From IMG/VR virus record IMGVR_UViG_3300025769_012879, positions 77,046 through 141,045 of that record: 64,000 bases of DNA. One strand, 5' to 3'. The notes beneath the pieces are model-generated. The model made no database searches, was not told the DNA's origin, and saw nothing but the letters and a program-made list of their open reading frames with translations. The translations under genes were made by a program, and so were the position numbers. Below are positions 34,658 to 56,512 of this stretch, one piece after another; position 1 is the first letter of the stretch, and each line of letters opens with the position of its first letter. Source of the stretch: a virus.

Positions 34658-36034
34658 ATGCGTACAAGCGAGAAGGTGGACTTTTCAAAGTTCGGTAATA
34701 TGTTTCAAGAGAATCTTGCCAAACTTATCCTTATGGATAGGGCATACTCTGACCAGATTGGCGAGGTCCTTGAAACTGAGTATTTTGAAACGAAATATTT
34801 GAAAAGGTTCACAAATCTAATTTATCAATATAAAGAAAAGTATGAGGTTCATCCGTCGATGAACCTCATGGCGTCTCTAATCAATACAGAGATGGACAAG
34901 GAAGACGACTTGGTAATCAAGCAAGTTCGTGATTTCCTTATTCGTATTCACTCAGACCCAGCAGTGCAGGGCGAGGAATACATCAAAGATACTGCTTTGG
35001 ACTTTTGTAAGAAGCAGAAACTAAAAGAAGCAATCGTAAAATCAGTTCGTCTTTTGGAGAAATCTTCATTTGACGAGATTAGTGATTTGATTAACGAAGC
35101 ACTCAAGTTAGGTCAGTCAAATGATTTTGGTTATCATTATATTAAAGATTTTGAGAAGCGATTTGAGGTAAAGGTTCGTAGTCCTATGACAACAGGATGG
35201 AAGACCTTTGATGACCTAATGCAAGGTGGACTTGGTGCTGGCGAACTTGGTGTTGCTATGGCAGGTACTGGAGCAGGAAAGAGTCATATTCTTGTACACT
35301 TAGGTGCTCAAGCATTGAAAGAAAAGAAAACTGTGGTACACTATACTCTGGAACTTTCCGAGACAGTTGTTGCTCGACGGTATGATTCATGTATCACAGG
35401 TGTAAAACTAAAAGACCTAAATGTATTCAAGGATAATATTCTGGAAGTTGTAAAAGATATTGAGGGGACTTTGATTGTAAAAGAGTATCCAACTCGATCT
35501 ATCTCAACAACAGCAATTAAGAATCACCTTTCTAAATTGAAGATGCGTGGTGTTGAACCAGATATTATTATTGTTGATTATGCAGATTTGATCAACCCAA
35601 AAAAGAGTTATGGCGAAAAACGACACGATTTAGAATCAATTTATGAGGAATTACGAGGAATTGCGCAAGAGCATAAATGCCCAATTTGGACCGTTTCTCA
35701 GACGAATAGGACAGGGTACAACGCAGAACTTGTCACAATGGAGTCAATTTCGGAGGCTTTTTCCAAATGTTTTGTTGCCGACTTCATATTTACTCTATCC
35801 CGAACTACCGAGGATAAAAACAACAATACAGGAAGGTTCTTTGTGGCTAAAAATCGTTTCGGTCCAGACGGCTTAATTTACCCAGTCAAGATGGATACAA
35901 GTAATGTAAAGATTTCTGTTGAGCAGAATTCTATTGATCCGTCCGCTGTTGGCAAGAACGCTGCAAAAGAACAAAAAGATATGTTGAGACAAAAATATAA
36001 GGAATTGCAACAAGAAATGAAAGGAGATAAATAA
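34658..36034 (+). CDS. Replicative DNA helicase (DnaB/gp41-like)
   Basis: AGTGAGKS, YTLE, IIVDYADL, SQTNR, KNRFG. Confidence 0.93.
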   Translation: MRTSEKVDFSKFGNMFQENLAKLILMDRAYSDQIGEVLETEYFETKYLKRFTNLIYQYKEKYEVHPSMNLMASLINTEMDKEDDLVIKQVRDFLIRIHSDPAVQGEEYIKDTALDFCKKQKLKEAIVKSVRLLEKSSFDEISDLINEALKLGQSNDFGYHYIKDFEKRFEVKVRSPMTTGWKTFDDLMQGGLGAGELGVAMAGTGAGKSHILVHLGAQALKEKKTVVHYTLELSETVVARRYDSCITGVKLKDLNVFKDNILEVVKDIEGTLIVKEYPTRSISTTAIKNHLSKLKMRGVEPDIIIVDYADLINPKKSYGEKRHDLESIYEELRGIAQEHKCPIWTVSQTNRTGYNAELVTMESISEAFSKCFVADFIFTLSRTTEDKNNNTGRFFVAKNRFGPDGLIYPVKMDTSNVKISVEQNSIDPSAVGKNAAKEQKDMLRQKYKELQQEMKGDK

Positions 36035-37893
36035 TGCAAATAGCGTCAGAAATTCTGTCAGATATCACAGTGCATATGAAATATGCGAAGTATATCCCCG
36101 AAAAGCAACGTAGGGAAAATTGGGTTGAACTTTGTACTCGTAATAGAGACATGCATATTAAGAAATACCCAGAGTTGAAAGAAGAAATTACCCAAGTGTA
36201 TGAAAACTTTGTCATACCAAAGAAGGTTTTGCCTTCAATGAGATCAATGCAGTTTGCTGGTAAACCAATTGAGGTTGCCCCAAACCGTGTATATAACTGC
36301 GCTTATATGCCAATCGATCACCCTGATGCTTTTGCAGAGTGTATGTTCCTTTTATTAGGTGGAACTGGCGTTGGTTTTTCTGTCCAGGCACACCATGTTG
36401 AGAAACTACCAGAGATCCGCAAGCCAAACCCAAAGCGTACTCGTCGTTTCTTAGTATCTGATTCTATTGAGGGATGGGCAGATGCTGTTAAGGCACTTGT
36501 TTATTCTTACTTCAAGGGCACATCTAAACTTCGTTTTGATTTCAGCGATATTCGTCCAAAGGGCGCTCGTCTTGTAACCTCTGGTGGTAAGGCACCAGGA
36601 CCCCAACCACTACGTGAGTGCTTGGTAAAGGTTGAGGGCATTCTTTCAGAGAAGGCAAATGGTGACAAACTTGAAACAATTGAAGTTCATGATATGATTT
36701 GTCATATTGCTGATGCTGTTTTAGCAGGCGGTATTCGTCGTGCAGCACTTATTTCACTCTTCTCAGCAGATGATGATGAAATGATTGCAGCAAAGTCAGG
36801 AAGTTGGTGGGAGACAAATCCACAGCGAGGCAGAGCAAACAACTCCGCAGTAATTCTACGACACAAAGTTGATAAAGAATACTTTATGTCACTTTGGGAT
36901 CGTATTAAAAAGTCAGGTTCAGGCGAGCCAGGAATTTATCTATCAAATGATAAGGATTGGGGTACCAACCCATGTTGCGAGATTGCTCTTCGTCCTTACC
37001 AGTTTTGTAACTTAACAGAGGTAAATGCTTCAGATTTAGAAGATCAGGAAGAGTATGAGTCCCGTGTTAAGGCAGCAGCGTTTCTAGGTACCCTACAAGC
37101 GGGTTATACGGACTTTCACTACCTACGCGATGTATGGCGTCGAAACACTGAGAAAGACGCTCTCATCGGCGTCTCAATGACAGGAATCGGGTCTGGTGCT
37201 GTTCTCAACTTGGATATGGAAGCAGCAGCAAAAGCAGTCAAAGAAGAGAATAGCAGGGTTGCAAATCTAATTGGTATTCGTGAGGCAGCGAGAACTACTT
37301 GTGTAAAACCAGCAGGCACAACCTCACTAACATTAGGCACTTCTTCAGGCATTCATGCTTGGCATAATGATTACTACATTCGTCGCATTCGTGTTGGTAA
37401 GAATGAAGCAATTTACAACTACTTATCACTGGCACATGAGGAATTGATTGAAGATGAATATTTTAGACCCCACGACACTGCTGTTATCTCTATTCCACAA
37501 AAGGCTCCAGAAGGAGCAATTTACCGAACAGAATCAGCCATGTCCATGCTCAAGCGAGTGGCAAAGGTCTCAAACGAGTGGGTTAGGAAAGGTCATAGAA
37601 AAGGTCAAAACACTCACAACGTTTCCGCAACTGTAAGCATTCGTGAGTCCGAATGGGCAGATGTTGGAGAGTGGATGTGGGAAAACCGCGATGTTTATAA
37701 TGGTCTTTCAGTTCTACCTTACGATGGTGGTAATTACGATCAGGCACCATTTGAGGATTGCTCTAAAGAAACTTATGAGGTTATGCTTCAGTCATTAACT
37801 AAAGTTGATCTAAATAATGTTTACGAAGCAGAGGACAACACTGATTTATCAGGCGAGTTGGCTTGTGCAGGCGGTGCTTGCGAAGTAGTATAA
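36034..37893 (+). CDS. nrdJ: Class II (B12-dependent) ribonucleotide reductase
   Basis: VYNC, GGIRRAALI, TNPCCEI, VKPAGT, C-terminal CAGGAC. Confidence 0.9.
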   Translation: MQIASEILSDITVHMKYAKYIPEKQRRENWVELCTRNRDMHIKKYPELKEEITQVYENFVIPKKVLPSMRSMQFAGKPIEVAPNRVYNCAYMPIDHPDAFAECMFLLLGGTGVGFSVQAHHVEKLPEIRKPNPKRTRRFLVSDSIEGWADAVKALVYSYFKGTSKLRFDFSDIRPKGARLVTSGGKAPGPQPLRECLVKVEGILSEKANGDKLETIEVHDMICHIADAVLAGGIRRAALISLFSADDDEMIAAKSGSWWETNPQRGRANNSAVILRHKVDKEYFMSLWDRIKKSGSGEPGIYLSNDKDWGTNPCCEIALRPYQFCNLTEVNASDLEDQEEYESRVKAAAFLGTLQAGYTDFHYLRDVWRRNTEKDALIGVSMTGIGSGAVLNLDMEAAAKAVKEENSRVANLIGIREAARTTCVKPAGTTSLTLGTSSGIHAWHNDYYIRRIRVGKNEAIYNYLSLAHEELIEDEYFRPHDTAVISIPQKAPEGAIYRTESAMSMLKRVAKVSNEWVRKGHRKGQNTHNVSATVSIRESEWADVGEWMWENRDVYNGLSVLPYDGGNYDQAPFEDCSKETYEVMLQSLTKVDLNNVYEAEDNTDLSGELACAGGACEVV

Positions 37894-39512: not shown

Positions 39513-39541
39513 AAAACTATTTAACTTACGAGGAATGAAAA

Positions 39542-39826
39542 ATGTCTGAAGAAAAGATAAACAACGCAGTTGAGTTTGCTGAACTCAAAGGTTCACTCAA
39601 AAGAATTGAAGATGTTATTATGACAATAAAAGAAAAAAATGAGGAAATGGCTGGTGATATTACCAAGATCAAAGAAGCAATCTACAACCCAGATCAAGGC
39701 ATTTACTCTCGTCTAAAAGAACTTGAAGCATGGAAAGCAAACATGAGTAAAGTTCTTTGGATTGGCGCAACCGGAGTTATTGGTTCTATTGGTGTTGCAA
39801 TCTGGGAAGTTTTAAAAAACACATAA
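39542..39826 (+). CDS. Putative holin-like protein (coiled coil plus C-terminal TM)
   Basis: Directly upstream of the endolysin; late motif at 39516. Confidence 0.5.
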   Translation: MSEEKINNAVEFAELKGSLKRIEDVIMTIKEKNEEMAGDITKIKEAIYNPDQGIYSRLKELEAWKANMSKVLWIGATGVIGSIGVAIWEVLKNT

Positions 39827-39835
39827 GGATATAAA

Positions 39836-40762
39836 ATGTTACTAAAAAAAGGTTCATCCGGTCATCAAGTAGTCGAACTACAAGAGGGACTTGAAGCATT
39901 AGGTTACGAATTAGGTGCCTGTGATGGCGCTTTTGGTCCAGCAACAGAAAAAGAAGTTAAAAAGTTCCAAGCAGAAAATGGACTAAAAGCAGATGGTTTA
40001 GCAGGTAAAGGAACAATTGGCAAACTAAATGAGTTGCTAAATGCTAGAAATATTGAGATCCAAGTTGGCGAAGATGATCAAAATGAAGAGGACTTACCAC
40101 CAGACGAAAAGTTGAGTTGGGTAAAATGCCCAGCAGATAAGTTCCCAGGCAGAGCAGGTTACACCCGTGTAACACTCCGTTCAGATGCCGCAGGGGCATA
40201 CAACGCTCTCTATCAAGAGGTTCAGGACTTAGGCGGTTACTTAACTTCAGCAGGCGGTAGAAGAGGTTTAGCATCCAAAGCAGGAGCCGCACGATCTAAG
40301 AAATCAATGCATTATGTAGGTTTAGCATTTGACATGGCACTGCCAACAGGTATGTACAAACCAGAGAAAGACCCTTATGTTATTGAAGATGTTGGCAATC
40401 GTCGCTGGAAGGTCTGGATGAGATGTGATAAGGGCGAGGAAATGACCATCGAAGGAACTTATGTAACTCGTTCAGGCGGTAAGACAAAGTTGAATAAAAA
40501 AGAAGTGACAGGAACATTTGTAGATTTCACAGCACTCGCTCTAAAACATGGTTTTCATTCCATTCGTGCCCGTAGTTCATTTTTTAGAGGCGGTTCCTAT
40601 GGTGGAGCAGAATGGTGGCATTTCCAGTATGAAAGAGCACTTACAAGAGGCGAATCTACTTTTGGTGAAGAACTACTAAAAGTTTACCCACTCGCCAAAG
40701 CAAAGCGATTTGTTTACTGGAACCAGTCAAAAGATTGTGTTTTCGGAAAGAACTGGTTTTAG
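39836..40762 (+). CDS. Endolysin: peptidoglycan-binding domain plus M15-type Zn peptidase
   Basis: LKKGSSG..V..LQ..L...DGAFGPAT...FQ...GL.ADG; SMHYVGLAFD; EWWH. Confidence 0.85.
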   Translation: MLLKKGSSGHQVVELQEGLEALGYELGACDGAFGPATEKEVKKFQAENGLKADGLAGKGTIGKLNELLNARNIEIQVGEDDQNEEDLPPDEKLSWVKCPADKFPGRAGYTRVTLRSDAAGAYNALYQEVQDLGGYLTSAGGRRGLASKAGAARSKKSMHYVGLAFDMALPTGMYKPEKDPYVIEDVGNRRWKVWMRCDKGEEMTIEGTYVTRSGGKTKLNKKEVTGTFVDFTALALKHGFHSIRARSSFFRGGSYGGAEWWHFQYERALTRGESTFGEELLKVYPLAKAKRFVYWNQSKDCVFGKNWF

Positions 40763-42174: not shown

Positions 42175-42187
42175 GGTATTCAAGTTT

Positions 42188-42271
42188 GGAGGAGCGGTAA
42201 AGTTGGAGAGTTGCCCTGGTCTGTAAAACCAGTGCCGAAAGGCTGAGTGAGTTCGAATCTCACCTCCTCCA
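42188..42271 (+). tRNA. tRNA-Tyr(GUA)
   Basis: Acceptor GGAGGAG/CTCCTCC, anticodon arm CTGGT-CTGTAAA-ACCAG, long variable arm, GTTCGAATC. Confidence 0.9.
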
Positions 42272-42286
42272 CCCTGGAGAAAACAA

Positions 42287-42508
42287 ATGAGATATTATAA
42301 AATAATAGATTTTAAAGTAGGAGATTTTATTTACAAGTTTAAAGAAGATCAGTGGTTAAGGTACGGCAAGGTTGTTCTGGAACAGGACGATATCTTTGGA
42401 GTAACCTCTAGCAATTTTAAAGGTGTGATGATGCTCCGCAAAGATCTTCTTTATTCAGAAGGGTTTATTGCAAGCAACTATGAACTTGACAACAAGCAAG
42501 AAGATTGA
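42287..42508 (+). CDS. Small SH3/KOW-like protein
   Basis: FKVGDFIY...YGKVV. Confidence 0.55.
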   Translation: MRYYKIIDFKVGDFIYKFKEDQWLRYGKVVLEQDDIFGVTSSNFKGVMMLRKDLLYSEGFIASNYELDNKQED

Positions 42509-42514
42509 TACAAT
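42486..42514 (+). promoter_or_regulatory. sigma70-type promoter for tRNA-Leu
   Basis: TTGACA-N17-TACAAT. Confidence 0.8.
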
Positions 42515-42526
42515 AGTTTTCAAGAA

Positions 42527-42613
42527 GCGAGCATGGTGGAATTGGTAGACACAACGGACTTAAAATCCGTCGCCTCGTTTGGCATGGGGGTTCAAGTCCC
42601 CCTGCTCGTACCA
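42527..42613 (+). tRNA. tRNA-Leu(UAA)
   Basis: GCGAGCA/TGCTCGT, ACGGA-CTTAAAA-TCCGT, encoded CCA. Confidence 0.92.
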
Positions 42614-42623
42614 AAGGTGTTTT

Positions 42624-42848
42624 ATGAAAAATAAAAAAGCATTGAAAGAATTTAGAGAAGAATTTTTATTAGATGAAGATTATGAGTATAGCATTGAACA
42701 AGATGATGGCGGGAAGACATTAGACATTATTGTCCCAGAAGGACATGCCCAGTTCCTAAGACAAAAGATTCCACGAAGATGGAGAGGGATTAGGACGATG
42801 ATAATTTCCCGTAAAAAAAGAAAGCAAATAGATGAAGATGAAATCTAA
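42624..42848 (+). CDS. Hypothetical protein
   Basis: ATG after tRNA-Leu with AAGGT upstream. Confidence 0.55.
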   Translation: MKNKKALKEFREEFLLDEDYEYSIEQDDGGKTLDIIVPEGHAQFLRQKIPRRWRGIRTMIISRKKRKQIDEDEI

Positions 42849-42851
42849 TTT

Positions 42852-43073
42852 ATGAAGATAGGTGATTTAGTTATAACAAAAACAAACAGACATGTCGGCT
42901 GTATAATCGACATAAAAAAACAAAGGTGGGCTGGTGTTTGTGCCAAGATCTTATTCTTCAAAACAGGTAAGAAAGAATGGAGAAAAATGGGCAACTTAGA
43001 ACCACTTGACAAAATCCACAAGGAGGGTTATAATGGATTCACTTCACGAGAAAAGAATGAGAGAGATCAATAA
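42852..43073 (+). CDS. Small SH3/KOW-like protein
   Basis: MKIGDLV...GCII. Confidence 0.55.
   Translation: MKIGDLVITKTNRHVGCIIDIKKQRWAGVCAKILFFKTGKKEWRKMGNLEPLDKIHKEGYNGFTSREKNERDQ
43006..43034 (+). promoter_or_regulatory. sigma70-type promoter upstream of the tRNA cluster
   Basis: TTGACA-N17-TATAAT. Confidence 0.85.
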
Positions 43074-43191
43074 AGAACAAGATAGGCTTCGTCGTAACGA
43101 ACTTATCTATGTAGCGGTCTCAAGCACATGTATGGGTTATTGCCTTGGTGAATTGGTGAGAAACTTTTTCCATTACATGGGCTGGATGTAA
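43033..43191 (+). CDS. Small hypothetical protein
   Basis: AGGAGG before ATG 43033. Confidence 0.5.
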   Translation: MDSLHEKRMREINKEQDRLRRNELIYVAVSSTCMGYCLGELVRNFFHYMGWM

Positions 43192-43199
43192 AAATCCAA

Positions 43200-43276
43200 G
43201 CGCCCTTAGCTCAGTTGGATAGAGCATCGGTCTTCTAAACCGAGGGTCACAGGTTCGAATCCTGTAGGGCGTGCCA
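43200..43276 (+). tRNA. tRNA-Arg(UCU)
   Basis: GCGCCCT/AGGGCGT, TCGGT-CTTCTAA-ACCGA, CCA. Confidence 0.95.
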
Positions 43277-43278
43277 AA

Positions 43279-43355
43279 GCGGGTGTAGCATAACTGGTAA
43301 ATGCACTGTTCTTATAAAGCAGAGATAGTGAGTTCAAGCCTCACCACCCGTACCA
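43279..43355 (+). tRNA. tRNA-Ile(UAU)
   Basis: GCGGGTG/CACCCGT, CTGTT-CTTATAA-AGCAG, discriminator A, CCA. Confidence 0.85.
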
Positions 43356-43359
43356 AAAC

Positions 43360-43432
43360 GCCGAAATAGCTCAGTTGGTAGAGCGCTTCACTTGTAATGA
43401 AGATGTCACGGGTTCGATTCCTGTTTTCGGCA
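43360..43432 (+). tRNA. tRNA-Thr(UGU)
   Basis: GCCGAAA/TTTCGGC, CTTCA-CTTGTAA-TGAAG; CCA not encoded. Confidence 0.92.
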
Positions 43433-43443
43433 CTGGACGAAAA

Positions 43444-43689
43444 ATGAAAGAAATAACAATAAAATTCGATGAAAAGTTTTATAAGCGTCTAAATGACGCA
43501 CGCAGATTAGAAGCACCAGATATTAGGAACGCTAAGTTCTGTAAAGAATTGGTAGAAGCGATGGTCGGTGCTATTGAAGACGATCACAAAAATAAAGGAG
43601 ATAAAAGTGCAAATCGTAAAAAACGAACTAACAAACAAACTAAACAAACTAAACCTCGCAAACGACGCCGAAGTAACTCTTCGTTATGA
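43444..43689 (+). CDS. Hypothetical, possibly ribbon-helix-helix protein
   Basis: MKEITIKFDEKFYKRL; basic tail overlaps the next gene. Confidence 0.45.
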   Translation: MKEITIKFDEKFYKRLNDARRLEAPDIRNAKFCKELVEAMVGAIEDDHKNKGDKSANRKKRTNKQTKQTKPRKRRRSNSSL

Positions 43690-44092
43690 GAACGGTCGTC
43701 AGGTATTTCACTACACAGGCGATTATTTAGACGAGGTTCTTCAAGAGACCAATGTTATTAGTGAGGTCGCACACCTCGTATCCTACGATGGTATTCGTAA
43801 GCATAACTCAGTAATTAACGATCTCCGAAACAACGGAGCACTTGATGATTATGAGCGAGGTTCATTCACCTTTGAAGACCATGTTTACGAGGCAGTAAAG
43901 AACGACTGGTATGATTACATCGAAGAGTCAGTCGAACAATGGGATCACAAGCGAGGAATGTGTAATGTTTCCGCAGAGGTAAAGGTTCCACTAAATCTAC
44001 TAGCAGAAGCAGAGGAGTTTGGATTTACTCTTGATAATGCTTGGAAGGTCTTTGTTCGCACTGATGCCGGTGTGTTGGAGGTAGAGCGATAA
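43607..44092 (+). CDS. Hypothetical protein
   Basis: AAGGAG before GTG 43607. Confidence 0.65.
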   Translation: MQIVKNELTNKLNKLNLANDAEVTLRYENGRQVFHYTGDYLDEVLQETNVISEVAHLVSYDGIRKHNSVINDLRNNGALDDYERGSFTFEDHVYEAVKNDWYDYIEESVEQWDHKRGMCNVSAEVKVPLNLLAEAEEFGFTLDNAWKVFVRTDAGVLEVER

Positions 44093-44205
44093 TGTTTGTA
44101 GATGATAAGCAATTTGAGAAGGAAGCAGGTAAGGTCTTTTGGGCATTTGTAGCAGCATTCGCAGGAGTTGCGGGACTATTCCTTTATCTTGGGAGTTTGG
44201 GATGA
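44092..44205 (+). CDS. Unannotated 37-aa membrane peptide
   Basis: MFVDDKQFEKEAGKVFWAFVAAFAGVAGLFLYLGSLG; coupled (TAATG) with GGAGG upstream. Confidence 0.55.
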   Translation: MFVDDKQFEKEAGKVFWAFVAAFAGVAGLFLYLGSLG

Positions 44206-44303
44206 CTCTAAAACAATTATTTTACAGTATTTTGGGAATCACATTTGTTGGTTATTGTTTGTTCAGAATGATTCCTGGTGTTTATAATTTATTTATGGGG
44301 TAA
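44202..44303 (+). CDS. Unannotated 33-aa membrane peptide
   Basis: MTLKQLFYSILGITFVGYCLFRMIPGVYNLFMG; ATGA overlap with GGAG upstream. Confidence 0.5.
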   Translation: MTLKQLFYSILGITFVGYCLFRMIPGVYNLFMG

Positions 44304-44316
44304 AATGTTATTAAAA

Positions 44317-45003
44317 ATGAAAATCCCTCTTTATGAGGACGGCAAAGGTTTCGTAGAGTTAGTTGATGCTGTGGGTTCAGACCTTTCAGTTGTAAACTCT
44401 GCTCGCGTTTCCTTTGGCAAGCACAAAACAGAACTTGATAATAAAGATAAAAAACTTATCAAGTATCTTATCAAACACAAGCACACTTCCACCCTGGAAC
44501 ACTGCTTTGTAACCTTCCGTGTAAAGGTTCCGCTGTTTGTTCGCTCTCAACACCACAGGCATCGCACTTGGTCTTACAACGAGATTAGTCGTCGTTACAC
44601 TGACTTTGACATTCAGTTCTATGAACCATCAACTTTTAGAACTCAGCACAAATCAAACCGTCAAGCAAGCAATGCAAGTGATTTAATTGATCCCGTTTTG
44701 CCACAGTGGGAAACATCAGCAGCAGTAGCAATGCGACACCACCATCAAGCAAGTCTTCAATTGTTTGAAGAACTTATTGAGTCAGGTGTTTGCCGTGAAC
44801 AAGCAAGGGGTGTTCTACCACAGAACATGTATACAGAATACTATGCTTCAGCAAACCTAAATAACATTTTGAAGTTTATTGACCTCCGCACACACGAAGG
44901 AGCGCAGTGGGAAATTCAAGAAATGGCAAAGGGAATGCTGGAAATCATTACAAAACTTTATCCAGAGACAGTAGGGGCATATCGTGAAATCAGGGGAGCA
45001 TAA
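44317..45003 (+). CDS. thyX: FAD-dependent thymidylate synthase
   Basis: RSQHHRHRTWSYNEISRRY, EQARGVLP, AQWEI. The start could be 44305. Confidence 0.95.
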   Translation: MKIPLYEDGKGFVELVDAVGSDLSVVNSARVSFGKHKTELDNKDKKLIKYLIKHKHTSTLEHCFVTFRVKVPLFVRSQHHRHRTWSYNEISRRYTDFDIQFYEPSTFRTQHKSNRQASNASDLIDPVLPQWETSAAVAMRHHHQASLQLFEELIESGVCREQARGVLPQNMYTEYYASANLNNILKFIDLRTHEGAQWEIQEMAKGMLEIITKLYPETVGAYREIRGA

Positions 45004-45462
45004 ATGGTCATTACTGGAAAAGTTATCTGTCTTGCTGTCATGGTTAACACAGCACTCTTTAGTCGTGCTGGTACAAATAGTGCTTGTCGTTATAGCAATA
45101 TTGTTGTAAAAGCGAGTTCTAAATATAAACTGGACCCCTACTTATTAACAGCACTTATCAAAGTGGAATCTAATTGGAAACCTCATGTTGTTTCACCTGC
45201 CGGTGCTTGCGGATTAACCCAGGTCGTTCATAAATACAGCAAATATAATTGTAAGCAATTAAAAAATCCAAAGATCTCAATTTGGGAGGGTGCTAAAAAA
45301 TTAAATTACTGGATTTATAAATACGGCAAGGGCAATGTAAAGATCGGATTATGTGGATATAACGCAGGTTTTCGATGCAAAGGAAAGTCACCCAACAAAA
45401 AAGGGTTGACATACGCAAAAAAAGTTGTTACAATAAGCAACAGGTTAAAAAGGAGAAAATAA
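45004..45462 (+). CDS. Lytic transglycosylase (SLT domain)
   Basis: IKVESNW, GACGLTQV, GYNAG; N-terminal hydrophobic segment. Confidence 0.85.
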   Translation: MVITGKVICLAVMVNTALFSRAGTNSACRYSNIVVKASSKYKLDPYLLTALIKVESNWKPHVVSPAGACGLTQVVHKYSKYNCKQLKNPKISIWEGAKKLNYWIYKYGKGNVKIGLCGYNAGFRCKGKSPNKKGLTYAKKVVTISNRLKRRK

Positions 45463-45463
45463 T

Positions 45464-45700
45464 ATGCGAAACCTATTTCTAATCACAGCAGCACTATCAA
45501 TGTTACTATTTGGTTGTGGATGCGATGAAAAGAAGGAAAAGAAGGAAGCAGATGTAGAGGCAGTTACAGATGCGGGAACTTCAAGTGATGCTGAGGCAAC
45601 ACCAGATGCTGGAACACCAGCAGACGCTACAAGCACACCAGATGCAGCAACACCAGTTGATGCTGTAGTGCTTCCCGGTGATGTAACACCACAAGGTTAA
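45464..45700 (+). CDS. Lipoprotein with DA(G/A)T-type low-complexity repeats
   Basis: Lipobox LLFGC; DAGT..DAEATPDAGTPADATSTPDAATPVDA. Confidence 0.7.
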   Translation: MRNLFLITAALSMLLFGCGCDEKKEKKEADVEAVTDAGTSSDAEATPDAGTPADATSTPDAATPVDAVVLPGDVTPQG

Positions 45701-45707
45701 TCACCTT

Positions 45708-45783
45708 TCCGTGATAGTTCAGCAGGTAGAACAAGTGGCTGTTAACCACTGGGTCGGGGGTTCGAATCCCTCTCACGGAGCCA
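45708..45783 (+). tRNA. tRNA-Asn(GUU)
   Basis: TCCGTGA/TCACGGA, AGTGG-CTGTTAA-CCACT, CCA. Confidence 0.93.
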
Positions 45784-45799
45784 ACTAGGAGAAACTAAA

Positions 45800-46015
45800 A
45801 TGGATAGGACCGCAATAGGAAACTTATTTTTAGAAGCAGCAAAGCGTCGTCTTGAGGCACAAATCAAAGATGCAGAAGCAAAAGTAAATCTCTATCTAAC
45901 TCAGGCGGTTGGAGTTGGAGAACATCCAGAAATTACAGAAGAAATTATTAAAGCAGCAGAACAAGGCGCTCACGCTCAAGATGTTTTAAATTTCATCAAT
46001 AAGCGCTGGAATTGA
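45800..46015 (+). CDS. Conserved small phage protein
   Basis: VGVGEHPEI motif; AGGAG RBS. Confidence 0.7.
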   Translation: MDRTAIGNLFLEAAKRRLEAQIKDAEAKVNLYLTQAVGVGEHPEITEEIIKAAEQGAHAQDVLNFINKRWN

Positions 46016-46021
46016 TAGAAT

Positions 46022-46096
46022 GCTCCCATAGTTTAGTGGTTAGAACGCTGGGCTTTCATCCCGGTAGCGAGGGTTCGATTCCCTCTGGGAGTACCA
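46022..46096 (+). tRNA. tRNA-Glu(UUC)
   Basis: GCTCCCA/TGGGAGT, CTGGG-CTTTCAT-CCCGG, CCA. Confidence 0.92.
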
Positions 46097-46108: not shown

Positions 46109-46414
46109 ATGATAATGGAATTGCACAGAACAGATGATAAAGTTGATCCGTTTGAGATGCCAACACAGGGATATGAAATGAATTCAGACAGAAATCAACT
46201 AAAAAGTTATTCAGAATTAGTAAATCACCCTGACCATTATAACACTGGAAAGATTGAGGTTATCGATGCGATTCAGGATTGGGGACTTGACTTTATCGAA
46301 GGTAATGTGGTAAAGTATGTAGCAAGGTCAAGGCACAAGTCATCTCGTGTTGGCGACCTAAAGAAAGCCAGATGGTATCTGGATTATCTTATTAGACAAT
46401 TAGAAGGAGAATAA
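46109..46414 (+). CDS. DUF3310-family protein
   Basis: VNHPDHY...IEVIDAI...GNVVKYVAR...DLKKARWYL. Confidence 0.85.
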   Translation: MIMELHRTDDKVDPFEMPTQGYEMNSDRNQLKSYSELVNHPDHYNTGKIEVIDAIQDWGLDFIEGNVVKYVARSRHKSSRVGDLKKARWYLDYLIRQLEGE

Positions 46415-46415
46415 A

Positions 46416-46598
46416 ATGTCAGTTAAGGTTTCACTTGAACAAGTAGTTCAGCAACTTACAGAGGCACTTGCCGACGCAGAGAAGACCGATAGTGGTAATA
46501 AGGCAGCAGGTACTCGTGTACGCAAGGCAGCACAATCAGCAACAAATGCCTTGAAGGATTTGCGTAAGCAGGTTCTTGAAGTCCGTAACGCCGACTAG
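46416..46598 (+). CDS. Histone H1-like (Hc1 family) protein
   Basis: DAEK..SGNKAAGTRVRK. Confidence 0.8.
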   Translation: MSVKVSLEQVVQQLTEALADAEKTDSGNKAAGTRVRKAAQSATNALKDLRKQVLEVRNAD

Positions 46599-46627
46599 TG
46601 TATAAAGGCAGAGCGGAATACGAACAG

Positions 46628-46662
46628 ATGAGGGACTTTGTTTTGAAAGCAGAGTCCTTCAT
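46628..46662 (+). terminator. Long hairpin before the kinase operon
   Basis: ATGAGGGACTTTGTTT / AAAGCAGAGTCCTTCAT inverted repeat. Confidence 0.55.
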
Positions 46663-46676
46663 TCATAAAACAAAGA

Positions 46677-46684
46677 ACTATTTA
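46677..46684 (+). promoter_or_regulatory. Putative late promoter motif upstream of the histidine kinase
   Basis: ACTATTTA, identical to the motif before the scaffold, neck and sheath genes. Confidence 0.65.
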
Positions 46685-46712
46685 GTAAAGCAATACAAGA
46701 GAATAGTTCTCC

Positions 46713-47966
46713 ATGTTCGTAGATTTTTCATTAAAAAGTAAAATATCATTATTTGTTTGTATTTTCATTATGTCTTGCTATTTTGTTATGCAAGTCATGT
46801 TAGAGGCAGGCGTGCTTCCTTTGACTCACCATGTGATTCACTTTGGAACCGCCTGCATTTCTTTATTTATCATGCCTTTCGGTGTTATCTTAATGGAGAT
46901 AATAGGAAGGTATCAAAGCGATAAAGTAAAGAAAAAAGCATTAGAAAGAATTTTAGATGAATCCTGTCTTGTTTCACGAACAGACCGCCAAGGCAGAATC
47001 ACAGAAGTAAACGATAAGTTCTGCGAGGTTTCAGGTTATTTAGCACAGGAACTCTTAGGACAAGACCACAAACTCCTAAACTCAGGTTTACAACCCCGTT
47101 CTTATTGGGGAAACATGTATACTGTAACAGTCAAGTACAAATCTATTTGGCATGATATTGTGACCAACCGAGCCAAAGATGGTAGTTTATACCATGTAAA
47201 GACATGGATTATGGCGAACTTTGATGACCAAGACAAACTCACAGGTTTCCTTTCAGTTAGACAAGATGTAACCAACCTTGTAGAAACACTACAACAAATT
47301 GACAAAAAGAACGACTATCTGGAACATGCCGCAAAGATTTTACGACACGACATGCACTCAGGCATCAACACTTATCTACCAAGAGGTATCAAGTCCCTAG
47401 AAAGACGCCTAGAAAAGAAACCAGAGGTTGCAAAGCAGTTAAACCTATCCATGCCCCTAAAACTAATAAAAGACGGTCTGGCGCACACACAGAAGGTTTA
47501 TAGCGGTGTCTTTGAGTTTACCAACTTGGTTCGCAAAGATGCTTCTCTCAATAGAAAACCCCACGACACAAAAGAAATTTTGAGAAACTACTTGAGTTTG
47601 ACTTCTTACTCTGATCAAGTTGTTATTGACGGAAACTTACCAGTTTTGGAAGTAAATGAAGCACTTTTCTGCACAGCAATCGATAACATGATTCGCAATG
47701 GTCTAAAGTACAACGACTCAAAAACAAAAATGATCATGATCAAAATGGTAGATGATGAGACCCTTGCTGTAATAGACAACGGCAGAGGAATGTCTCAAGA
47801 AGAATTTGAAGAACTTTCAAAACCTTATCTCAGAAAGCAAGACCAAAAAGAGAAAGGCACAGGATTAGGACTATCTATTACAACCGCCATTTTAAAAGAG
47901 CACGGTTATGAAGTTTCTGCGAAAAAACAAGAAACAGGAACTATGATGAGGATAAAAATAAAATGA
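46713..47966 (+). CDS. Membrane PAS-domain sensor histidine kinase
   Basis: Two TMs; PAS (TDRQGRITEVNDKFCEVSGY...NRAKDGSLY); H-box LRHDM; N-box NMIRNGLKY; DNGRG; GTGLGL. Confidence 0.92.
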   Translation: MFVDFSLKSKISLFVCIFIMSCYFVMQVMLEAGVLPLTHHVIHFGTACISLFIMPFGVILMEIIGRYQSDKVKKKALERILDESCLVSRTDRQGRITEVNDKFCEVSGYLAQELLGQDHKLLNSGLQPRSYWGNMYTVTVKYKSIWHDIVTNRAKDGSLYHVKTWIMANFDDQDKLTGFLSVRQDVTNLVETLQQIDKKNDYLEHAAKILRHDMHSGINTYLPRGIKSLERRLEKKPEVAKQLNLSMPLKLIKDGLAHTQKVYSGVFEFTNLVRKDASLNRKPHDTKEILRNYLSLTSYSDQVVIDGNLPVLEVNEALFCTAIDNMIRNGLKYNDSKTKMIMIKMVDDETLAVIDNGRGMSQEEFEELSKPYLRKQDQKEKGTGLGLSITTAILKEHGYEVSAKKQETGTMMRIKIK

Positions 47967-48394
47967 TTAACTCTATTCTATTAGTTGATGACGAGAACCT
48001 TTTCCATCTTGTCTTTGAGGATGCTTGCTCTCTATTAGACATTACACTAGATTTACAGAGCATTTCATCATCAGACGAAGCAGCAAAGATGTTTGAGGAT
48101 TGGAGAGGACACCCAGAAGATAAACCAGAGTGTGTTTTTGTTGACCTAAACATTATTGGTTCATCTTTTGATGGTATTGAACTTATTCGTAAGATTAACT
48201 TTGAGTACGGCAACGGAGTTGTTATTGGCATCATCTCATCTTCAACTGACGAATCAGAAATAACAAAAGCAGTTTCAGCAGGTGCTCAGTTTTGGATTGT
48301 AAAGTCAGATGAAATCGAACCACGCCTTGAAGAGTTCCGTAGAGATTATGCGGGGTACAAAGACAGAAAAGCACCATTCAAGGTCTACAAATGA
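47963..48394 (+). CDS. Stand-alone response regulator (receiver only)
   Basis: ILLVDDE, VFVDLN, DGIEL, ISSS, WIVK; no output domain. Confidence 0.9.
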   Translation: MINSILLVDDENLFHLVFEDACSLLDITLDLQSISSSDEAAKMFEDWRGHPEDKPECVFVDLNIIGSSFDGIELIRKINFEYGNGVVIGIISSSTDESEITKAVSAGAQFWIVKSDEIEPRLEEFRRDYAGYKDRKAPFKVYK

Positions 48395-48948
48395 AACTCT
48401 CACAAGAAATGAAGTCGGCATTGTTAGACCTTGCCGAGAAAAGAAATATTTATCTTGAAGGTAATATTATCAAGGTAATAGACCCTGACAGCGATGAAGA
48501 GTTCGCTGGATACCTAACAAAAGCAAAAGAGCAAGACACCGACAACCGAAAGAAAAGGTTGGAGATAACCAAGCAAGTCCAGCGACAATACAAAGAACTC
48601 CTTGAGGAAAAAGAAAAAAATGACACCCTCATGGATGAACTCAAAGAAGCACTTGGTGCTGCTGAGGAAGCAAAGAAAACAGCACAGAATGACTTAGACG
48701 TGCTGCAAAAGCGCACGCAGTTTGAACTCATAGGCAAGATAGTCAATGTTGCTCTGTGGGTCATTATGGGTGTGGGAGTGACAACTACTGCCCTCTACAT
48801 GTTCGCTATGATTACGAAGTTTGATACAACTCTAATTGGCAACGCTTGGTCAAACTTATTCGGCATCCTTCTCACTAACTCCTTCAGTATTATAGGAACT
48901 ATCATGGGTGTGAAGTATGCGAGCAACGACTCTAAAGAAAAGACTTGA
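48391..48948 (+). CDS. Coiled-coil protein with two C-terminal TM helices
   Basis: ATGA-coupled to the receiver gene; two hydrophobic segments. Confidence 0.75.
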   Translation: MKLSQEMKSALLDLAEKRNIYLEGNIIKVIDPDSDEEFAGYLTKAKEQDTDNRKKRLEITKQVQRQYKELLEEKEKNDTLMDELKEALGAAEEAKKTAQNDLDVLQKRTQFELIGKIVNVALWVIMGVGVTTTALYMFAMITKFDTTLIGNAWSNLFGILLTNSFSIIGTIMGVKYASNDSKEKT

Positions 48949-48973
48949 CATAGGATCCAAACTAACATATAAT
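48945..48973 (+). promoter_or_regulatory. sigma70-type promoter for dut
   Basis: TTGACA-N17-TATAAT. Confidence 0.85.
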
Positions 48974-52856: not shown

Positions 52857-53087
52857 ATGAATAACGCAGAAATTTACGAGATGATCCCCTTTCAAGTGTT
52901 GGAGAGGGTTGGTTTTCCAACAAACTATATTCAATTAAGTTTAGATCAAAAGTTTTTTGTAGATTGTGTCTTTAATAATTCACGCGATATCTTTAGTGAG
53001 AATTTGCGTATGCAAGACAAGATCTACCATCTAGAAGATAAGGTAGCAGACCTACAACACGAACTCAACAACCTAGCAGGAGAATAA
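52857..53087 (+). CDS. Hypothetical protein
   Basis: GGAGG RBS; coupled to dnaE. Confidence 0.55.
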   Translation: MNNAEIYEMIPFQVLERVGFPTNYIQLSLDQKFFVDCVFNNSRDIFSENLRMQDKIYHLEDKVADLQHELNNLAGE

Positions 53088-56000
53088 TGAGTAACCAAAT
53101 TAAATTTGTGGGATTGCACGCCCACTCTGTTTTCAGTGTATTTGATGGACTTGGATATCCACAAGACCACATTGATTATGCTATTGAGAACGGCATGGAC
53201 GCCTTGGCACTAACAGACCACGGCAACATGAACGGACTTTCTTATCAGGTGCTTCACTCAAAGAAGTTGCAGAAAGAAGGCAAAAACTTCAAACCAATCT
53301 TTGGCATTGAAGGATATTTTATTGATTCCATCTCAAAGTGGAAGGAAGAAAAAGAAGAAATCGACAAAAATAAAAAGGGTCGAAAGAAGAAAGAAGAGAA
53401 TAGCGCAGTAGTTATTGAAGACGAGGAAGCAACAAAACGGCAGGAAAAGAACATTCTAAACCGTCGTGCTCACTTGGTTTTGTTAGTTCAGAACCAAACT
53501 GGTCTAAATAACTTGTTTACTTTGGTAAGTAAGTCGTTTGACCCAGAGAACTTTTATCGTTATCCCCGCATTGATTTTGATATGTTGCGGGAACACAATG
53601 AAGGTATTATTGTATCTTCAGCGTGTATGGGTGGTCCTTTGTCGAAGGATTACTGGAACAACCGGGAGGAAGGTGATGACGCTGTACAGCGGGCGATGGT
53701 CGCAACAATTGAAAACTTTACCTCTATCTTTGGAGATAGATTTTACGGTGAACTTCAATGGAACGCAATCCCAGAGCAACACGAGATTAACAAACACATT
53801 ATCCGCGCTGCTGAAAAGACCGGCATTAAACTTATTTCAACGGCAGATAGTCACTACCCTCGACCAGAGTTGTTCAAAGATCGAGAACTTTATAAGCAAC
53901 TTGGATGGTTGGGTAAATCTAAACCAGACTACGCAGAATCAACACTCCCAGAGAGCAGAAAGGAACTAAAGTATGAACTTTATCCAAAGAACGGCGACCA
54001 AATGTGGGATGCTTACAAGACTTATTCAAAACAATGTGGGGTAGATTATGATGATGACTTTATTCGTGAAACAATTGAGCGCACTTATGAAATCGCTCAC
54101 AGCCGTATTGAATCTTTCTATCCCGATGCTACTGTTCGCTTACCTGATTTTGTTGTCCCTGACGGAAAGTCGCCTGATGAAACGCTACGAGACTTATGTT
54201 TTGAAGGTCTTAAGCAAAAGGGGTTGGATTCCAAAGATGATTATAGTAAACGACTCAAAGAAGAACTCGGAGTAATTCAAGACCGAGGTTTCTCAAAATA
54301 TTTCTTAACAATGAAGGCGGTTAGTGATGAAGCAATTAAAACACAATTGGTTGGTGCCGGTCGCGGTAGTGCTGCTGGTTCTCTTGTTGCTTATGTACTT
54401 GGTATTACTGGTATTGATCCCATCGAGTATGGTCTCCTCTTTAGTCGATTCCTTAGAAGAGATGCTGTCGATTATCCAGATATCGATTATGATGTTGCTG
54501 ATCCGATGGTACTGAAGGAGATCCTTATTGATAAGTGGGGCAAAGATGTTGTGGTTCCAATTAGCAATTACAACACACTACAGTTGCGTTCACTAATCAA
54601 AGACATCTCAAAGTTCTACGGTGTTGACTTTACAGAGGTAAACCGTGTAACTTCTGTGATGCTAAAAGAGGCAACTCCGATTGCAAAGAAAGCGCACGGA
54701 ATTACAGCAGGAGTTTATGCTCCAACATTTGAAGAGGTAAAAGAATACAGTGAGACACTTAAACAATTTCTTAGAAAGTATCCGCACATCGCTACCCACG
54801 TTGACAACCTTTATGGTCAGGTTCGATCTATCAGTCGTCACGCTGGCGGCGTGGTTATTGCTGACGGATTGAACAAACACATGCCGCTAATTAATAGTGG
54901 TGGTGTACAACAAACACCATGGAGTGAGGGACAAAATGTTAGACACCTTGAACCTCTTGGATTTATTAAATTTGATATCCTTGGACTCGCAAGTCTCAGA
55001 ATGGTGGAGGGTGCTATCAGTCATATTCTTCGCAGGCACCATGGGATTAAGGAACCTTCGTTCGCTGACATTAAAAAGTGGTATGACGAGAACTTAGAAC
55101 CTAATGTTCTAAATCTAAACGACCAGAAGGTTTACAAGAATGTTTTCCACCGTGGCAAGTGGGCAGGAGTATTCCAGTTTACAGAGAAAGGAGCACAAGG
55201 TTTTTGTAAGAAGGCAAAACCAGAGTCAATCATTGACATTTCTGCTATTACATCGATTTATCGTCCAGGTCCACTATCGGCAAAGGTTCACAATCACTAT
55301 GTAAAAGCAAAGCGAAACCCAATGAGTGTGAAGTATTTGCATCCTTTGGTAAAAGAAGTAACTGAAGAGACTTATGGATTCTTAATTTTCCAAGAGCAAA
55401 TTGCGTTGCTTGCTCACAAGTTGGGCAAAGATCTATCACTTGACGAAGGTAACATGCTTCGCAAACTATTAACTAAAAAGGGAACGGGGAAAGGCAATGA
55501 AAAGAAAATGGCAATCCACAAAAAGTTCATTGAAGGTTGCGTTGAGAAAGGCATCAAAGAAAGCGATGCACAAACACTTTGGCAAACATTTGAATACTTT
55601 TCAGGATACGGTTTTAATAAGTCCCACGCTGTATCTTACAGCATTCTTAGTTACCAGTGTGCCCATCTTCTTACTTACTATCCCGTTGAATGGTTGGCAG
55701 CATTTCTCGACAAGGAACCAGAAGGACGAAAAGAACAAGCAATCAACATTGTACGAAGTCTTGGATATCGAGTAAAACGTCCTGATATTAACGAGTCAGG
55801 TCAGGTCTGGGAGATTAGCGAGACGGAAAAGAAAACTTTGGTTCAACCTTTGACTTCCATCAAAGGTCTTGGAGATAAGGCAGTTGAGCAGATCTTGCAG
55901 CACCGACCTTTTAATACACCAGAGGAGTTATTGTTTAATGAGGATGTTAGTTATTCCAAACTAAACAAGAAAGCATTAGACGTTTTAACTCGTTCGGGTG

Positions 56001-56512
56001 CTCTAAACAATATGGTTGATGATCGTTTCACAGGTCTGAAACACTTCTGGTCTGCTGTTGCAGTTGACCGTCCAAAGAAGGAAAAGAATTTGTTAGATAA
56101 TATCGAACTCTATAAACCTGAAGGTGATTTCACTAAGGCAGAGAAGATGGAGTTTCTAACTAATCTAACTGGTATTTATCCAATCAACGAGGTTGTTAGT
56201 GATAAGTTACTGAAAAAGTTTGGTAAGTTGAAGGTTCCACCAATCGGTGAATACGATAGGGATTTGCGTCTATGTTGGTTTATTATTCGCGATGTTATTG
56301 AGAAGAAGACAAAGACAGGTAAAGATTACTGGATCTTAAAGACAATCGATAACGAAAGCAATCAGGTTGATATTAAATGTTGGGGTGTTGATCCACAGTT
56401 AGATTATTATAAGAAGAACGTTCCTTGTATGGCAAAGTTAGACTATAATGACACCTGGGGATTCAGCACTAGGTCGTTCAGAAGGAACATTAAGTTTGTG
56501 GAACTTAGTTAA
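53087..56512 (+). CDS. dnaE: DNA polymerase III alpha subunit (family C)
   Basis: PHP LHAHS/TDHG/DSHY, GRGSAAGS, PDIDYD, KFDILG, YGFNKSHA. Confidence 0.96.
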   Translation: MSNQIKFVGLHAHSVFSVFDGLGYPQDHIDYAIENGMDALALTDHGNMNGLSYQVLHSKKLQKEGKNFKPIFGIEGYFIDSISKWKEEKEEIDKNKKGRKKKEENSAVVIEDEEATKRQEKNILNRRAHLVLLVQNQTGLNNLFTLVSKSFDPENFYRYPRIDFDMLREHNEGIIVSSACMGGPLSKDYWNNREEGDDAVQRAMVATIENFTSIFGDRFYGELQWNAIPEQHEINKHIIRAAEKTGIKLISTADSHYPRPELFKDRELYKQLGWLGKSKPDYAESTLPESRKELKYELYPKNGDQMWDAYKTYSKQCGVDYDDDFIRETIERTYEIAHSRIESFYPDATVRLPDFVVPDGKSPDETLRDLCFEGLKQKGLDSKDDYSKRLKEELGVIQDRGFSKYFLTMKAVSDEAIKTQLVGAGRGSAAGSLVAYVLGITGIDPIEYGLLFSRFLRRDAVDYPDIDYDVADPMVLKEILIDKWGKDVVVPISNYNTLQLRSLIKDISKFYGVDFTEVNRVTSVMLKEATPIAKKAHGITAGVYAPTFEEVKEYSETLKQFLRKYPHIATHVDNLYGQVRSISRHAGGVVIADGLNKHMPLINSGGVQQTPWSEGQNVRHLEPLGFIKFDILGLASLRMVEGAISHILRRHHGIKEPSFADIKKWYDENLEPNVLNLNDQKVYKNVFHRGKWAGVFQFTEKGAQGFCKKAKPESIIDISAITSIYRPGPLSAKVHNHYVKAKRNPMSVKYLHPLVKEVTEETYGFLIFQEQIALLAHKLGKDLSLDEGNMLRKLLTKKGTGKGNEKKMAIHKKFIEGCVEKGIKESDAQTLWQTFEYFSGYGFNKSHAVSYSILSYQCAHLLTYYPVEWLAAFLDKEPEGRKEQAINIVRSLGYRVKRPDINESGQVWEISETEKKTLVQPLTSIKGLGDKAVEQILQHRPFNTPEELLFNEDVSYSKLNKKALDVLTRSGALNNMVDDRFTGLKHFWSAVAVDRPKKEKNLLDNIELYKPEGDFTKAEKMEFLTNLTGIYPINEVVSDKLLKKFGKLKVPPIGEYDRDLRLCWFIIRDVIEKKTKTGKDYWILKTIDNESNQVDIKCWGVDPQLDYYKKNVPCMAKLDYNDTWGFSTRSFRRNIKFVELS

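Follow-up and report, generated by a model that had tools for sequence, protein, structure and literature searches.

A three-gene signaling operon in a large phage genome

We analyzed a 64,000-nucleotide (nt) stretch of DNA, called the window here, that forms the final 64 kb of a 141-kb virus record in IMG/VR (IMGVR_UViG_3300025769_012879; estimated completeness, 78%). The window contains an operon of three genes, which we call the trio. Its products are a sensor kinase, a lone receiver, and a protein with a coiled coil and two transmembrane (TM) segments that we name G3. Both gene junctions are ATGA overlaps. An earlier note, made from the sequence of this DNA, had described three ATGA-coupled genes lying between a hairpin with the motif ACTATTTA and a sigma-70 promoter. 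Open reading frames (ORFs), RNA folding, and the promoter consensus confirmed this layout. The descriptions of the three products held as well. The kinase has two TM segments with a tiny external loop, a PAS domain, and intact H, N, G1, and G2 boxes (hydropathy, Pfam, and 52 homologs). The receiver keeps its DD, D, S, and K residues and has no output domain (31 homologs), and the third gene codes for a coiled coil with two C-terminal TM segments (AF2 model and hydropathy). The features of the locus, in window coordinates, are as follows.

46626-46662, + strand: terminator-like hairpin of 17 bp that closes the upstream Hc1-like gene unit (RNA fold)
46674-46710, + strand: second hairpin, a 9-bp inverted repeat with 5' arm AGAACTATT and 3' arm AATAGTTCT
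46677-46684, + strand: ACTATTTA, putative late-promoter motif, 36 nt 5' of the kinase start
46713-47966, + strand: kinase, 417 amino acids; TM hairpin at residues 1-67 (hydropathy)
46962-47273: kinase PAS domain, residues 84-187 (Pfam PAS_9)
47346-47348: kinase H212, phosphoacceptor in the DHp helix, predicted from the alignment
47667-47960: kinase HATPase_c domain, residues 319-416 (Pfam E = 2.4e-14)
47963-48394, + strand: receiver, 143 amino acids
48143-48145: receiver D61, predicted phosphoacceptor
48391-48948, + strand: G3, 185 amino acids; small head (residues 1-45), coiled-coil stalk of variable length (46-110), and TM hairpin (111-176)
48945-48973, + strand: sigma-70 promoter TTGACA-17-TATAAT, 12/12 consensus, overlapping the G3 stop and starting the dUTPase unit

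The trio is phage specific and under purifying selection

A word-seeded search recovered more than 120 kinase homologs (E < 1e-134), and tblastn confirmed 461 relatives of G3 in IMG/VR. We examined co-occurrence in 80 fetched loci out of these 461. In every fetched locus with enough upstream DNA, a receiver (67-98% identity) and a kinase (40-98%) lay upstream of G3. All contexts that we opened were phage-like, with the genes in the order kinase, receiver (143-145 amino acids), G3 (182-228 amino acids). Phage markers in these contexts include Portal_T4, Gp23, prohead protease, and T4_Y16D. In locus L009, a T4-type prohead protease and Gp23 flank the trio, and a holin is close by. In L005 it follows SLT and M10 peptidase genes, the SLT gene lying directly 5' of the kinase. 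Jumbo-phage-like contigs of 276-285 kb carry the trio together with T4_Y16D, Tad6, and thymidylate synthase.

The trio is virtually confined to viruses. Among 185,579 prokaryotic species, represented by one genome each, we found G3 in four loci only. These are contigs of metagenome-assembled genomes (MAGs) from four different phyla, all with the trio. Co-occurrence is thus strict in phage loci, and the cellular side amounts to four MAG contigs; because they come from unrelated phyla, we rejected a bacterial home for the trio as unproven. Two of these contigs illustrate the ambiguity. One, binned as a Gemmatimonadota MAG (L099), has 66% GC and trio neighbors without Pfam matches. The other, binned as a Bdellovibrionota MAG (L097), has 48% GC and a length of 89 kb and carries the trio beside a prkA-DUF444-spoVR operon. 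They may be mis-binned phage contigs or prophage-like elements, and their status is ambiguous. In the ESM Atlas, the clusters closest to G3 consist of viral members only (100%).

Searches of 50,697 GenBank phage records, at the DNA and the protein level, gave no full-length match to the kinase, the receiver, or G3. The matches were limited to tRNA, generic HATPase pieces, and Aer PAS genes on P1-like records. The earlier note had judged such a circuit unusual for a phage. This is correct for cultured phages (0 in the GenBank records), but uncultured aquatic phages of the T4-like and jumbo kinds commonly have the trio, as the IMG/VR relatives demonstrate.

All three genes had dN/dS values of 0.03-0.15 in comparisons with relatives that are 91-98% identical. 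These results demonstrate that the trio is phage-encoded, intact, and under purifying selection.

The composition of the locus is not entirely rigid. A second, paralogous kinase lies next to the first in 7 of 52 loci (for example, L098:2037-5552; also L022 and L027). Some loci have extra genes between kinase, receiver, and G3, coding for YceI or for proteins of 162 and 218 amino acids of unknown function. In L018, G3 is 97% identical to that of the window, the receiver 83%, and the kinase 54%. This mismatch indicates that recombination shuffles parts of the trio between phages.

The kinase carries a PAS domain of the FAD type

Hydropathy places the TM segments of the kinase at residues 1-35 and 41-67, joined by a loop of ~5 residues. 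The catalytic motifs are fully conserved. The N box (N325, N329), the G1 box (D355-N-G-x-G359), and the G2 box (G382-x-G384-L-G386) are invariant in 52 diverse kinase homologs, and so is an atypical H box (Y-L-E-H205 ... R-H212-D-M-H-S-G). Because the kinase has no match to Pfam HisKA, we judge its DHp helix to be divergent.

The best PDB matches of the PAS domain are MmoS PAS-A (E = 2.6e-27), Aer (2.3e-17), and NifL PAS1 (1.8e-8). The top four matches (3EWK, 8DIK, the full-length Aer entry, and 2GJ3) are all flavin adenine dinucleotide (FAD)-PAS proteins, and LOV/FMN domains rank only below them. In Aer, H53 stacks on the isoalloxazine ring of the flavin, N85 bonds N3/O4, and R115 lies over N5; R57 touches the phosphates, M69 and W70 touch the adenine, and a Gly at position 28 stabilizes the domain (PMC9668731). 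MmoS has the His, Asn, and Arg in common with Aer (PMC9668731). Our alignment matches the three flavin contacts of Aer with H119, N152, and R183 of the phage kinase, and Aer G28 and M69 with G94 and M135. At the remaining positions, W70 is replaced by Y136, and R57 is replaced by N123, with Asn likewise present in MmoS. The phage positions G94, H119, N123, M135/Y136, N152, and R183 are invariant in the 23 homologs with a cleanly aligned PAS domain. The proposal of the earlier note that this PAS domain follows the FAD-binding pattern of Aer and NifL is therefore supported by both the PDB matches and the retained pocket residues. Assignment of the domain as an FAD-type redox or energy sensor is well supported by homology, and the kinase is probably flavin/redox-sensing.

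The sensor module varies across the family. The 52 kinases range from 271 to 718 amino acids; a PAS domain is present in 39 and a GAF domain in 6, and 13 are short TM-hairpin-DHp-CA forms. N-terminal TM segments, arranged as a hairpin with almost no outer loop, are kept in 47 of the 52, including short forms without a PAS domain. The DHp-CA core, the receiver, and G3 remain constant while the sensor changes. The redox sensing suggested in the earlier note agrees with the FAD-type PAS homology of the window's kinase, but a redox PAS is only one of several modules on a constant core, and redox is therefore not the universal input.

The lone receiver resembles phytochrome-associated receivers

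The second gene product matches Pfam Response_reg (E = 2.4e-9). Residues D9, D10, D61, S92-94, W111, and K114 are invariant in 31 homologs. This set contains the predicted phosphoacceptor and the switch residues S92, W111, and K114. The C-terminal tail is also conserved among these homologs, and column identity averages 79%. No output domain was detected by Pfam or in the alignment. The AF2 model (pLDDT 93) has a canonical receiver fold with a C-terminal helix/strand tail. Its nearest solved structures are 6XVU, 1I3C, 1K68, and 4ZYL, the phytochrome-associated lone receivers DrBRR, Rcp1, RcpA/B, and RPA3017.

The kinase and receiver have every sequence hallmark of a two-component system. They would form a His-to-Asp pair and are genetically coupled through the ATGA overlap and the strict co-occurrence.

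G3 defines a family of predicted membrane-hairpin effectors

The AF2 model of G3 (pLDDT 85) has a small helical head, a helix at residues 36-142 that runs into TM1, and a helix at residues 147-183 that forms TM2. The likely topology is two TM helices with both termini inside (N-in/C-in). The head is moderately conserved, with E23, G24, F38, and Y41 invariant in the alignment. The coiled coil is basic and has insertions of up to ~45 residues among relatives. TM2 is nearly invariant (W153-S-N-x-F-G-I-L-L-T-N-x-F-S-I-x-G-T-I-M-G-V-K-Y176). It displays a stripe of small residues (S154/G158/T162/S166 plus G169/G173) that is typical of tight helix packing, and TM2 would be expected to pack in this way.

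We could not place G3 in an existing family. PHROGs, NCBIfam, and PADLOC have no family for it and returned sub-threshold coiled-coil/TM noise only (DUF2207_C, GLE1, SLATT). Pfam and related library scans gave no match to LrgA/LrgB. When 1.84 billion representatives were searched exhaustively with a profile, just 258 clusters contained G3 relatives. On these comparisons, G3 represents a new family of predicted effectors that belongs to no described family.

Natural domain swaps indicate which end of G3 delivers the output. P0157 consists of a GAF domain followed by the G3 stalk and hairpin, with a nearly identical TM2, and P0174 joins two PAS domains (PAS-PAS) to the same stalk and hairpin. 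Both come from AT-rich phage-like contigs on which no kinase or receiver adjoins them. Endolysin-type genes lie 0.8-2 kb downstream of both (Glucosaminidase with a faint GH19 match in L101; PG_binding_1 with GH19 in L104). In the reverse arrangement, P0245, P0251, and P0256 fuse the G3 head and the first part of the stalk to HisKA and HATPase_c. P0251 and P0256 fill the G3 slot, where they follow a family kinase and a receiver of 73% identity with start-stop coupling; these soluble fused kinases are at L102:1567-2523 and L105:5001-6050. Because these swaps exchange the head for GAF or PAS and the hairpin for a kinase core, we assign the hairpin to the output end of G3. The earlier note's view of the third protein as a membrane effector gains support from the sensor-stalk-hairpin fusions. 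As read from these variants, the architecture is an input (G3 head, GAF, or PAS), a coiled coil, and an output (two-TM hairpin or kinase core).

Two side observations concern these fusions. In L102, the gene after the fused kinase codes for an AraC-type (HTH_18) protein of 410 amino acids. This arrangement suggests a relay from a first kinase through the lone receiver to a second kinase and on to a transcription factor. We set aside P0176, a G3 head joined to an FecCD permease, because it could be a chimera, being known from one contig of 1.5 kb.

The G3 head occupies the position of a sensor domain and is always encoded immediately 3' of the lone receiver, which suggests that it is the receiver-facing input. 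In a mirror-tree test, pairwise identity of the head rose with that of the receiver (Spearman 0.51, or 0.43 as a partial correlation that takes the kinase core into account). With the kinase core there was no such relation (partial 0.06). The domain-swap variants, the flavin-pocket residues, the dN/dS values, and this head-receiver covariation are new in the present analysis.

Expression signals upstream of the kinase

The window has nine copies of the motif ACTATTTA, each of them on the + strand, compared with 3.4 copies expected on both strands. Eight of the nine copies sit 10-40 nt ahead of a start codon, including those at 11325, 14285, 17096 (sheath), and 39542; the ninth (7366) is 139 nt ahead of the next long ORF. 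The genes headed by the motif include genes of the capsid and sheath regions. Late expression of the trio is a reasonable inference because the motif before the kinase also precedes structural genes. The earlier note had called the trio late-expressed, and the shared motif fits this. TATTTAT strings occur upstream of the kinase in ~10 of 52 loci when distant relatives are searched for ACTATTTA/TATTTA. These are suggestive, and we did not use them as evidence.

The region 46596-46730, which spans both hairpins, folds much better than shuffled sequences (z = -6.1, RNA fold). The stem at 46626-46662 is preserved despite base changes in relatives L001, L017, and L019, and in L001, which is 94% identical, a T run follows it. 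In the second hairpin, the 5' arm AGAACTATT overlaps the motif ACTATTTA, and the 3' arm AATAGTTCT ends 2 nt 5' of the kinase ATG. Both arms are conserved in the same three close relatives, and no compensatory changes were seen among them. The second hairpin could mask the ribosome-binding region on read-through transcripts, and transcripts begun at ACTATTTA would be without the 5' arm. The arrangement can be likened to T4 gene e/soc-style control.

Lysis-type genes near the trio

We clustered the 444 ORFs found within 3 kb of the trio in 52 non-redundant loci. The largest cluster was an Amidase_2 family (11 of 52 loci). A protein of 62-82 amino acids with a weak match to the T7 holin family is encoded immediately upstream of the kinase in nine loci, and a protein of 138-146 amino acids matching Phage_holin_4_1 (up to E = 1e-6 in some members) was found in eight. 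Further clusters were the extra kinase paralogs (7 of 52) and Peptidase_M15_3 (five loci). At least one of the four lysis-type clusters was present within 3 kb in 21 of 52 loci. When the 136 nearest neighbors were compared with Pfam, most had no annotation. Thirteen were holin_4_1, Amidase_2, lysozyme, M15, or GH19 proteins, the largest functional group. Lysis-type genes are expected to make up 1-2% of genes in large phage genomes. Against this general baseline, used in place of a matched genomic control, the enrichment near the trio is only roughly several-fold.

The window itself contains two candidate lysis gene pairs at some distance from the trio.

39542-39826: coiled-coil protein of 94 amino acids with a C-terminal hydrophobic segment, headed by ACTATTTA (region 39516-40762)
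39836-40762: PG_binding_1 protein of 308 amino acids
45004-45462, + strand: SLT lytic transglycosylase (Pfam SLT E = 4e-17) with a signal-anchor-like N-terminal hydrophobic segment (hydropathy)
45464-45700, + strand: protein of 78 amino acids that abuts the SLT gene, with a lipobox-like LFGC and an acidic tail rich in Ala, Thr, Pro, and Asp

The 39542 and PG_binding_1 genes, 6-7 kb upstream of the trio, are likely to act as a pair in lysis and share their motif with the kinase operon. Homologs of the 308-residue PG_binding_1 protein lie within a few kb of the trio in 11 fetched loci. The SLT/lipobox pair is 1.25 kb 5' of the trio, beyond two tRNAs, the DUF3310 gene, and the Hc1-like gene. The SLT gene is the nearest muralytic gene in the window to the G3 unit, whose 185-residue product has a long cytoplasmic part. 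The SLT and 78-residue proteins could be a signal-anchored endolysin and an outer membrane lipoprotein partner, and this pair is possibly linked to the trio.

Genome setting

One strand carries all long ORFs of the window. Its head and tail genes include a T4-type large terminase, a gp20-type portal, a gp23-type capsid protein, and a tail sheath. Genes for replication and metabolism include DnaB, a class II ribonucleotide reductase, and a PolIII-alpha-type polymerase. To judge from these genes, the source virus is a large myovirus with a T4-like head. The DNA-level search of the GenBank phage records identified no close isolated phage, the matches being to tRNA only. Other features of the setting are listed here.

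36034-37893: B12-dependent class II ribonucleotide reductase
42187-46096: seven tRNA genes (Tyr, Leu-UAA, Arg-UCU, Ile-UAU, Thr-UGU, Asn, Glu)
46109-46598: DUF3310 protein and a chlamydial-type histone-like Hc1 protein of 60 amino acids, directly 5' of the kinase operon
53087-56512: PolIII-alpha-type replicase (PHP, NTPase, finger, and HHH domains)

The phage thus has a T4-like head with a bacterial-type replicase and a class II reductase in place of the T4-type enzymes. Two of the seven tRNA genes alternate with small ORFs just 5' of the trio. The DUF3310/Hc1-like pair also precedes the trio in relatives L001 and L002.

A model for trio function and its alternatives

The trio is a real, intact, and phage-specific module, and we propose a plausible mechanism for it. 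The kinase would be held in the membrane by its TM hairpin, with almost no outer loop, and would read the redox or respiratory state through its Aer/MmoS-type FAD-PAS domain and autophosphorylate on H212. The phosphate would then move to D61 of the lone receiver, and the phosphorylated receiver would bind the small head of G3. The signal would run along the coiled-coil stalk to the two-helix membrane hairpin and change how the hairpin packs with itself or with an inner membrane partner. The most likely consequence would be a shift in when, or whether, the membrane is permeabilized late in infection, as by a holin/antiholin-like lysis timer tied to the energy state of the host. In this way, the trio may let the phage act on the host membrane according to the energy state of the cell. 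We estimate a probability of about one half that the trio is a virus-specific two-component relay with a dedicated membrane-hairpin output, most likely in lysis timing. Lysis timing is a plausible output and the best supported. The earlier note had also mentioned host motility or host signaling as a target, and we found nothing in support of this. More tentative is a generalization to G3 as a virus-specific class of signal-gated membrane-hairpin effectors (input, coiled coil, two TM segments). Acting through the relay or as one-protein PAS/GAF fusions, such effectors might allow strictly lytic aquatic T4-like and jumbo phages to set the moment of lysis from host redox or energy state.

Several observations weigh against the relay with a lysis output. 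G3 has no match to a Pfam holin family at E <= 0.1, none of 51 G3 members has one at E <= 0.01, and no other Pfam family matches above its cut-off. A Foldseek search of the PDB with the G3 model returned nothing below E = 6.8, a result that is uninformative for a long helical hairpin. The association with lysis genes involves a minority of loci, and the trio of the window lies between tRNA/DNA-metabolism genes and the dUTPase, outside any lysis cassette. The sensor varies, with 13 of 52 kinases lacking a PAS domain and 6 having GAF. Physical linkage of adjacent genes could account for part of the head-receiver correlation. Finally, L012 has a kinase and receiver with no G3 within 5 kb; a 240-residue gene upstream of that kinase was considered as G3 and is not G3-like.

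LiaF regulates LiaS as an accessory protein, and other intramembrane-sensing kinases have such partners. G3 might similarly be a membrane co-sensor or accessory regulator of the kinase rather than its output, with the receiver acting on a host or phage protein encoded elsewhere. The near-loopless N-terminal TM hairpin of 47 of the 52 kinases is a hallmark of intramembrane-sensing kinases. Kinase-core identity tracks the G3 TM region (Spearman 0.40) more than the G3 head (0.23), and the receiver, at a mean column identity of 79%, is far more conserved than contact with a phage partner alone seems to require. However, the GAF and PAS-PAS fusions to the stalk and hairpin have no kinase nearby, and the hairpin therefore has its own role downstream of a cytoplasmic sensor. 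Kinase TM identity fails to track the G3 TM region (0.09, p 0.06), and the G3 head tracks the receiver and not the kinase. G3 also matches no LiaF-type domain or accessory family, only the three-gene logic being alike. We consider a co-sensor role unlikely.

We are similarly doubtful that the module controls host membrane physiology instead of lysis. In such a scheme, the G3 hairpin would bind a conserved host inner membrane machine (respiratory chain, ATP synthase, transport, or cell wall export) and match energy to phage demand or block superinfection. TM2 is nearly invariant across phage contigs of 30%-66% GC, which fits a target conserved across hosts, and more than half of the loci have no recognizable lysis gene within 3 kb. 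An Aer-type sensor, moreover, reports on electron transport (PMC9668731). Yet no host partner was identified, the annotated neighbors are most often lysis enzymes or holin-like genes, and both one-protein variants are near endolysins. A far weaker case can be made for the operon as an acquisition from bacteria that is recent, unexpressed, or decaying and plays no part in infection. The kinase and receiver domains are of bacterial origin, and no cultured phage has the trio. This idea, raised in the earlier note, fails on grounds of conservation: hundreds of phage contigs keep the three genes in the same order at 40-98% identity, the dN/dS values are low (0.03-0.15) with all catalytic residues invariant, and G3 is virtually absent from cellular genomes. 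We regard it as highly improbable.

In the usual view, lytic phages time lysis by a holin clock with little input, and T4 lysis inhibition is the classic exception. If our model is correct, many abundant environmental viruses gauge the physiology of the cells they infect and tune a membrane event accordingly. They would do so with a complete phage-encoded sensory relay with interchangeable sensors, conserved in hundreds of uncultured aquatic phages. Such a relay would be the first lysis clock under phosphorelay control in any virus, with consequences for burst size, latent period, and the release of carbon in natural waters. The long-orphan stand-alone receivers would gain a concrete partner, the G3 head, and the relay would offer a compact natural signal-to-membrane switch. 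Our literature search found no paper describing a phage trio of kinase, receiver, and membrane hairpin; its coverage was open access, so novelty is unproven.

Comparison with known signaling and lysis systems

We compared the trio to systems that share parts of its design. The phage kinase has PAS homology and pocket residues in common with Aer, MmoS, and NifL, and MmoS too feeds a histidine kinase. The phage PAS domain differs in being encoded by a lytic-type phage and in directly following a loop-less TM hairpin. The receiver resembles Rcp1, RcpA/B, DrBRR, and RPA3017, which are also ~140 amino acids long with a C-terminal extension and no output domain and whose genes adjoin a PAS/GAF kinase. 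Sequence identity to these proteins is only ~20%, and the phage receiver gene, unlike theirs, is followed by a dedicated membrane-protein gene. To our knowledge, the partners of Rcp proteins are largely unknown.

In the LytSR-CidAB/LrgAB systems of Firmicutes, a kinase that senses membrane state acts with its regulator to govern small membrane proteins, which in turn determine murein hydrolase access and lysis, a logic like that proposed for the trio. LytS, however, senses through a 5TM-Lyt module, and its regulator LytR binds DNA by a LytTR domain and acts on transcription. The phage receiver lacks a DNA-binding domain and would exert control through protein contact, and there is no sequence relation to LrgAB/CidAB. 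SLATT defense effectors resemble G3 as predicted two-TM membrane effectors that follow a signaling module. The matches of G3 to them are sub-threshold (SLATT_5, E = 0.063, 13 bits versus a cut-off of 29.5; PADLOC RT-SLATT, E = 0.006), the domain order is different, and G3 is phage-encoded and not defensive.

In T4 lysis inhibition (holin T, antiholins RI and RIII), as in our proposal, the phage delays or triggers lysis on a sensed signal. The predicted two TM segments and likely N-in/C-in topology of G3, whose TM2 bears the small-residue stripe, recall class II holins and pinholins. G3 differs in having no homology to T, RI, RIII, or any Pfam holin and in carrying 110 residues of cytoplasmic head and stalk. 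We know of no phage lysis system for which a phosphorylation signal from a two-component relay has been described. The trio is a new variant of two-component signaling with a new effector family.

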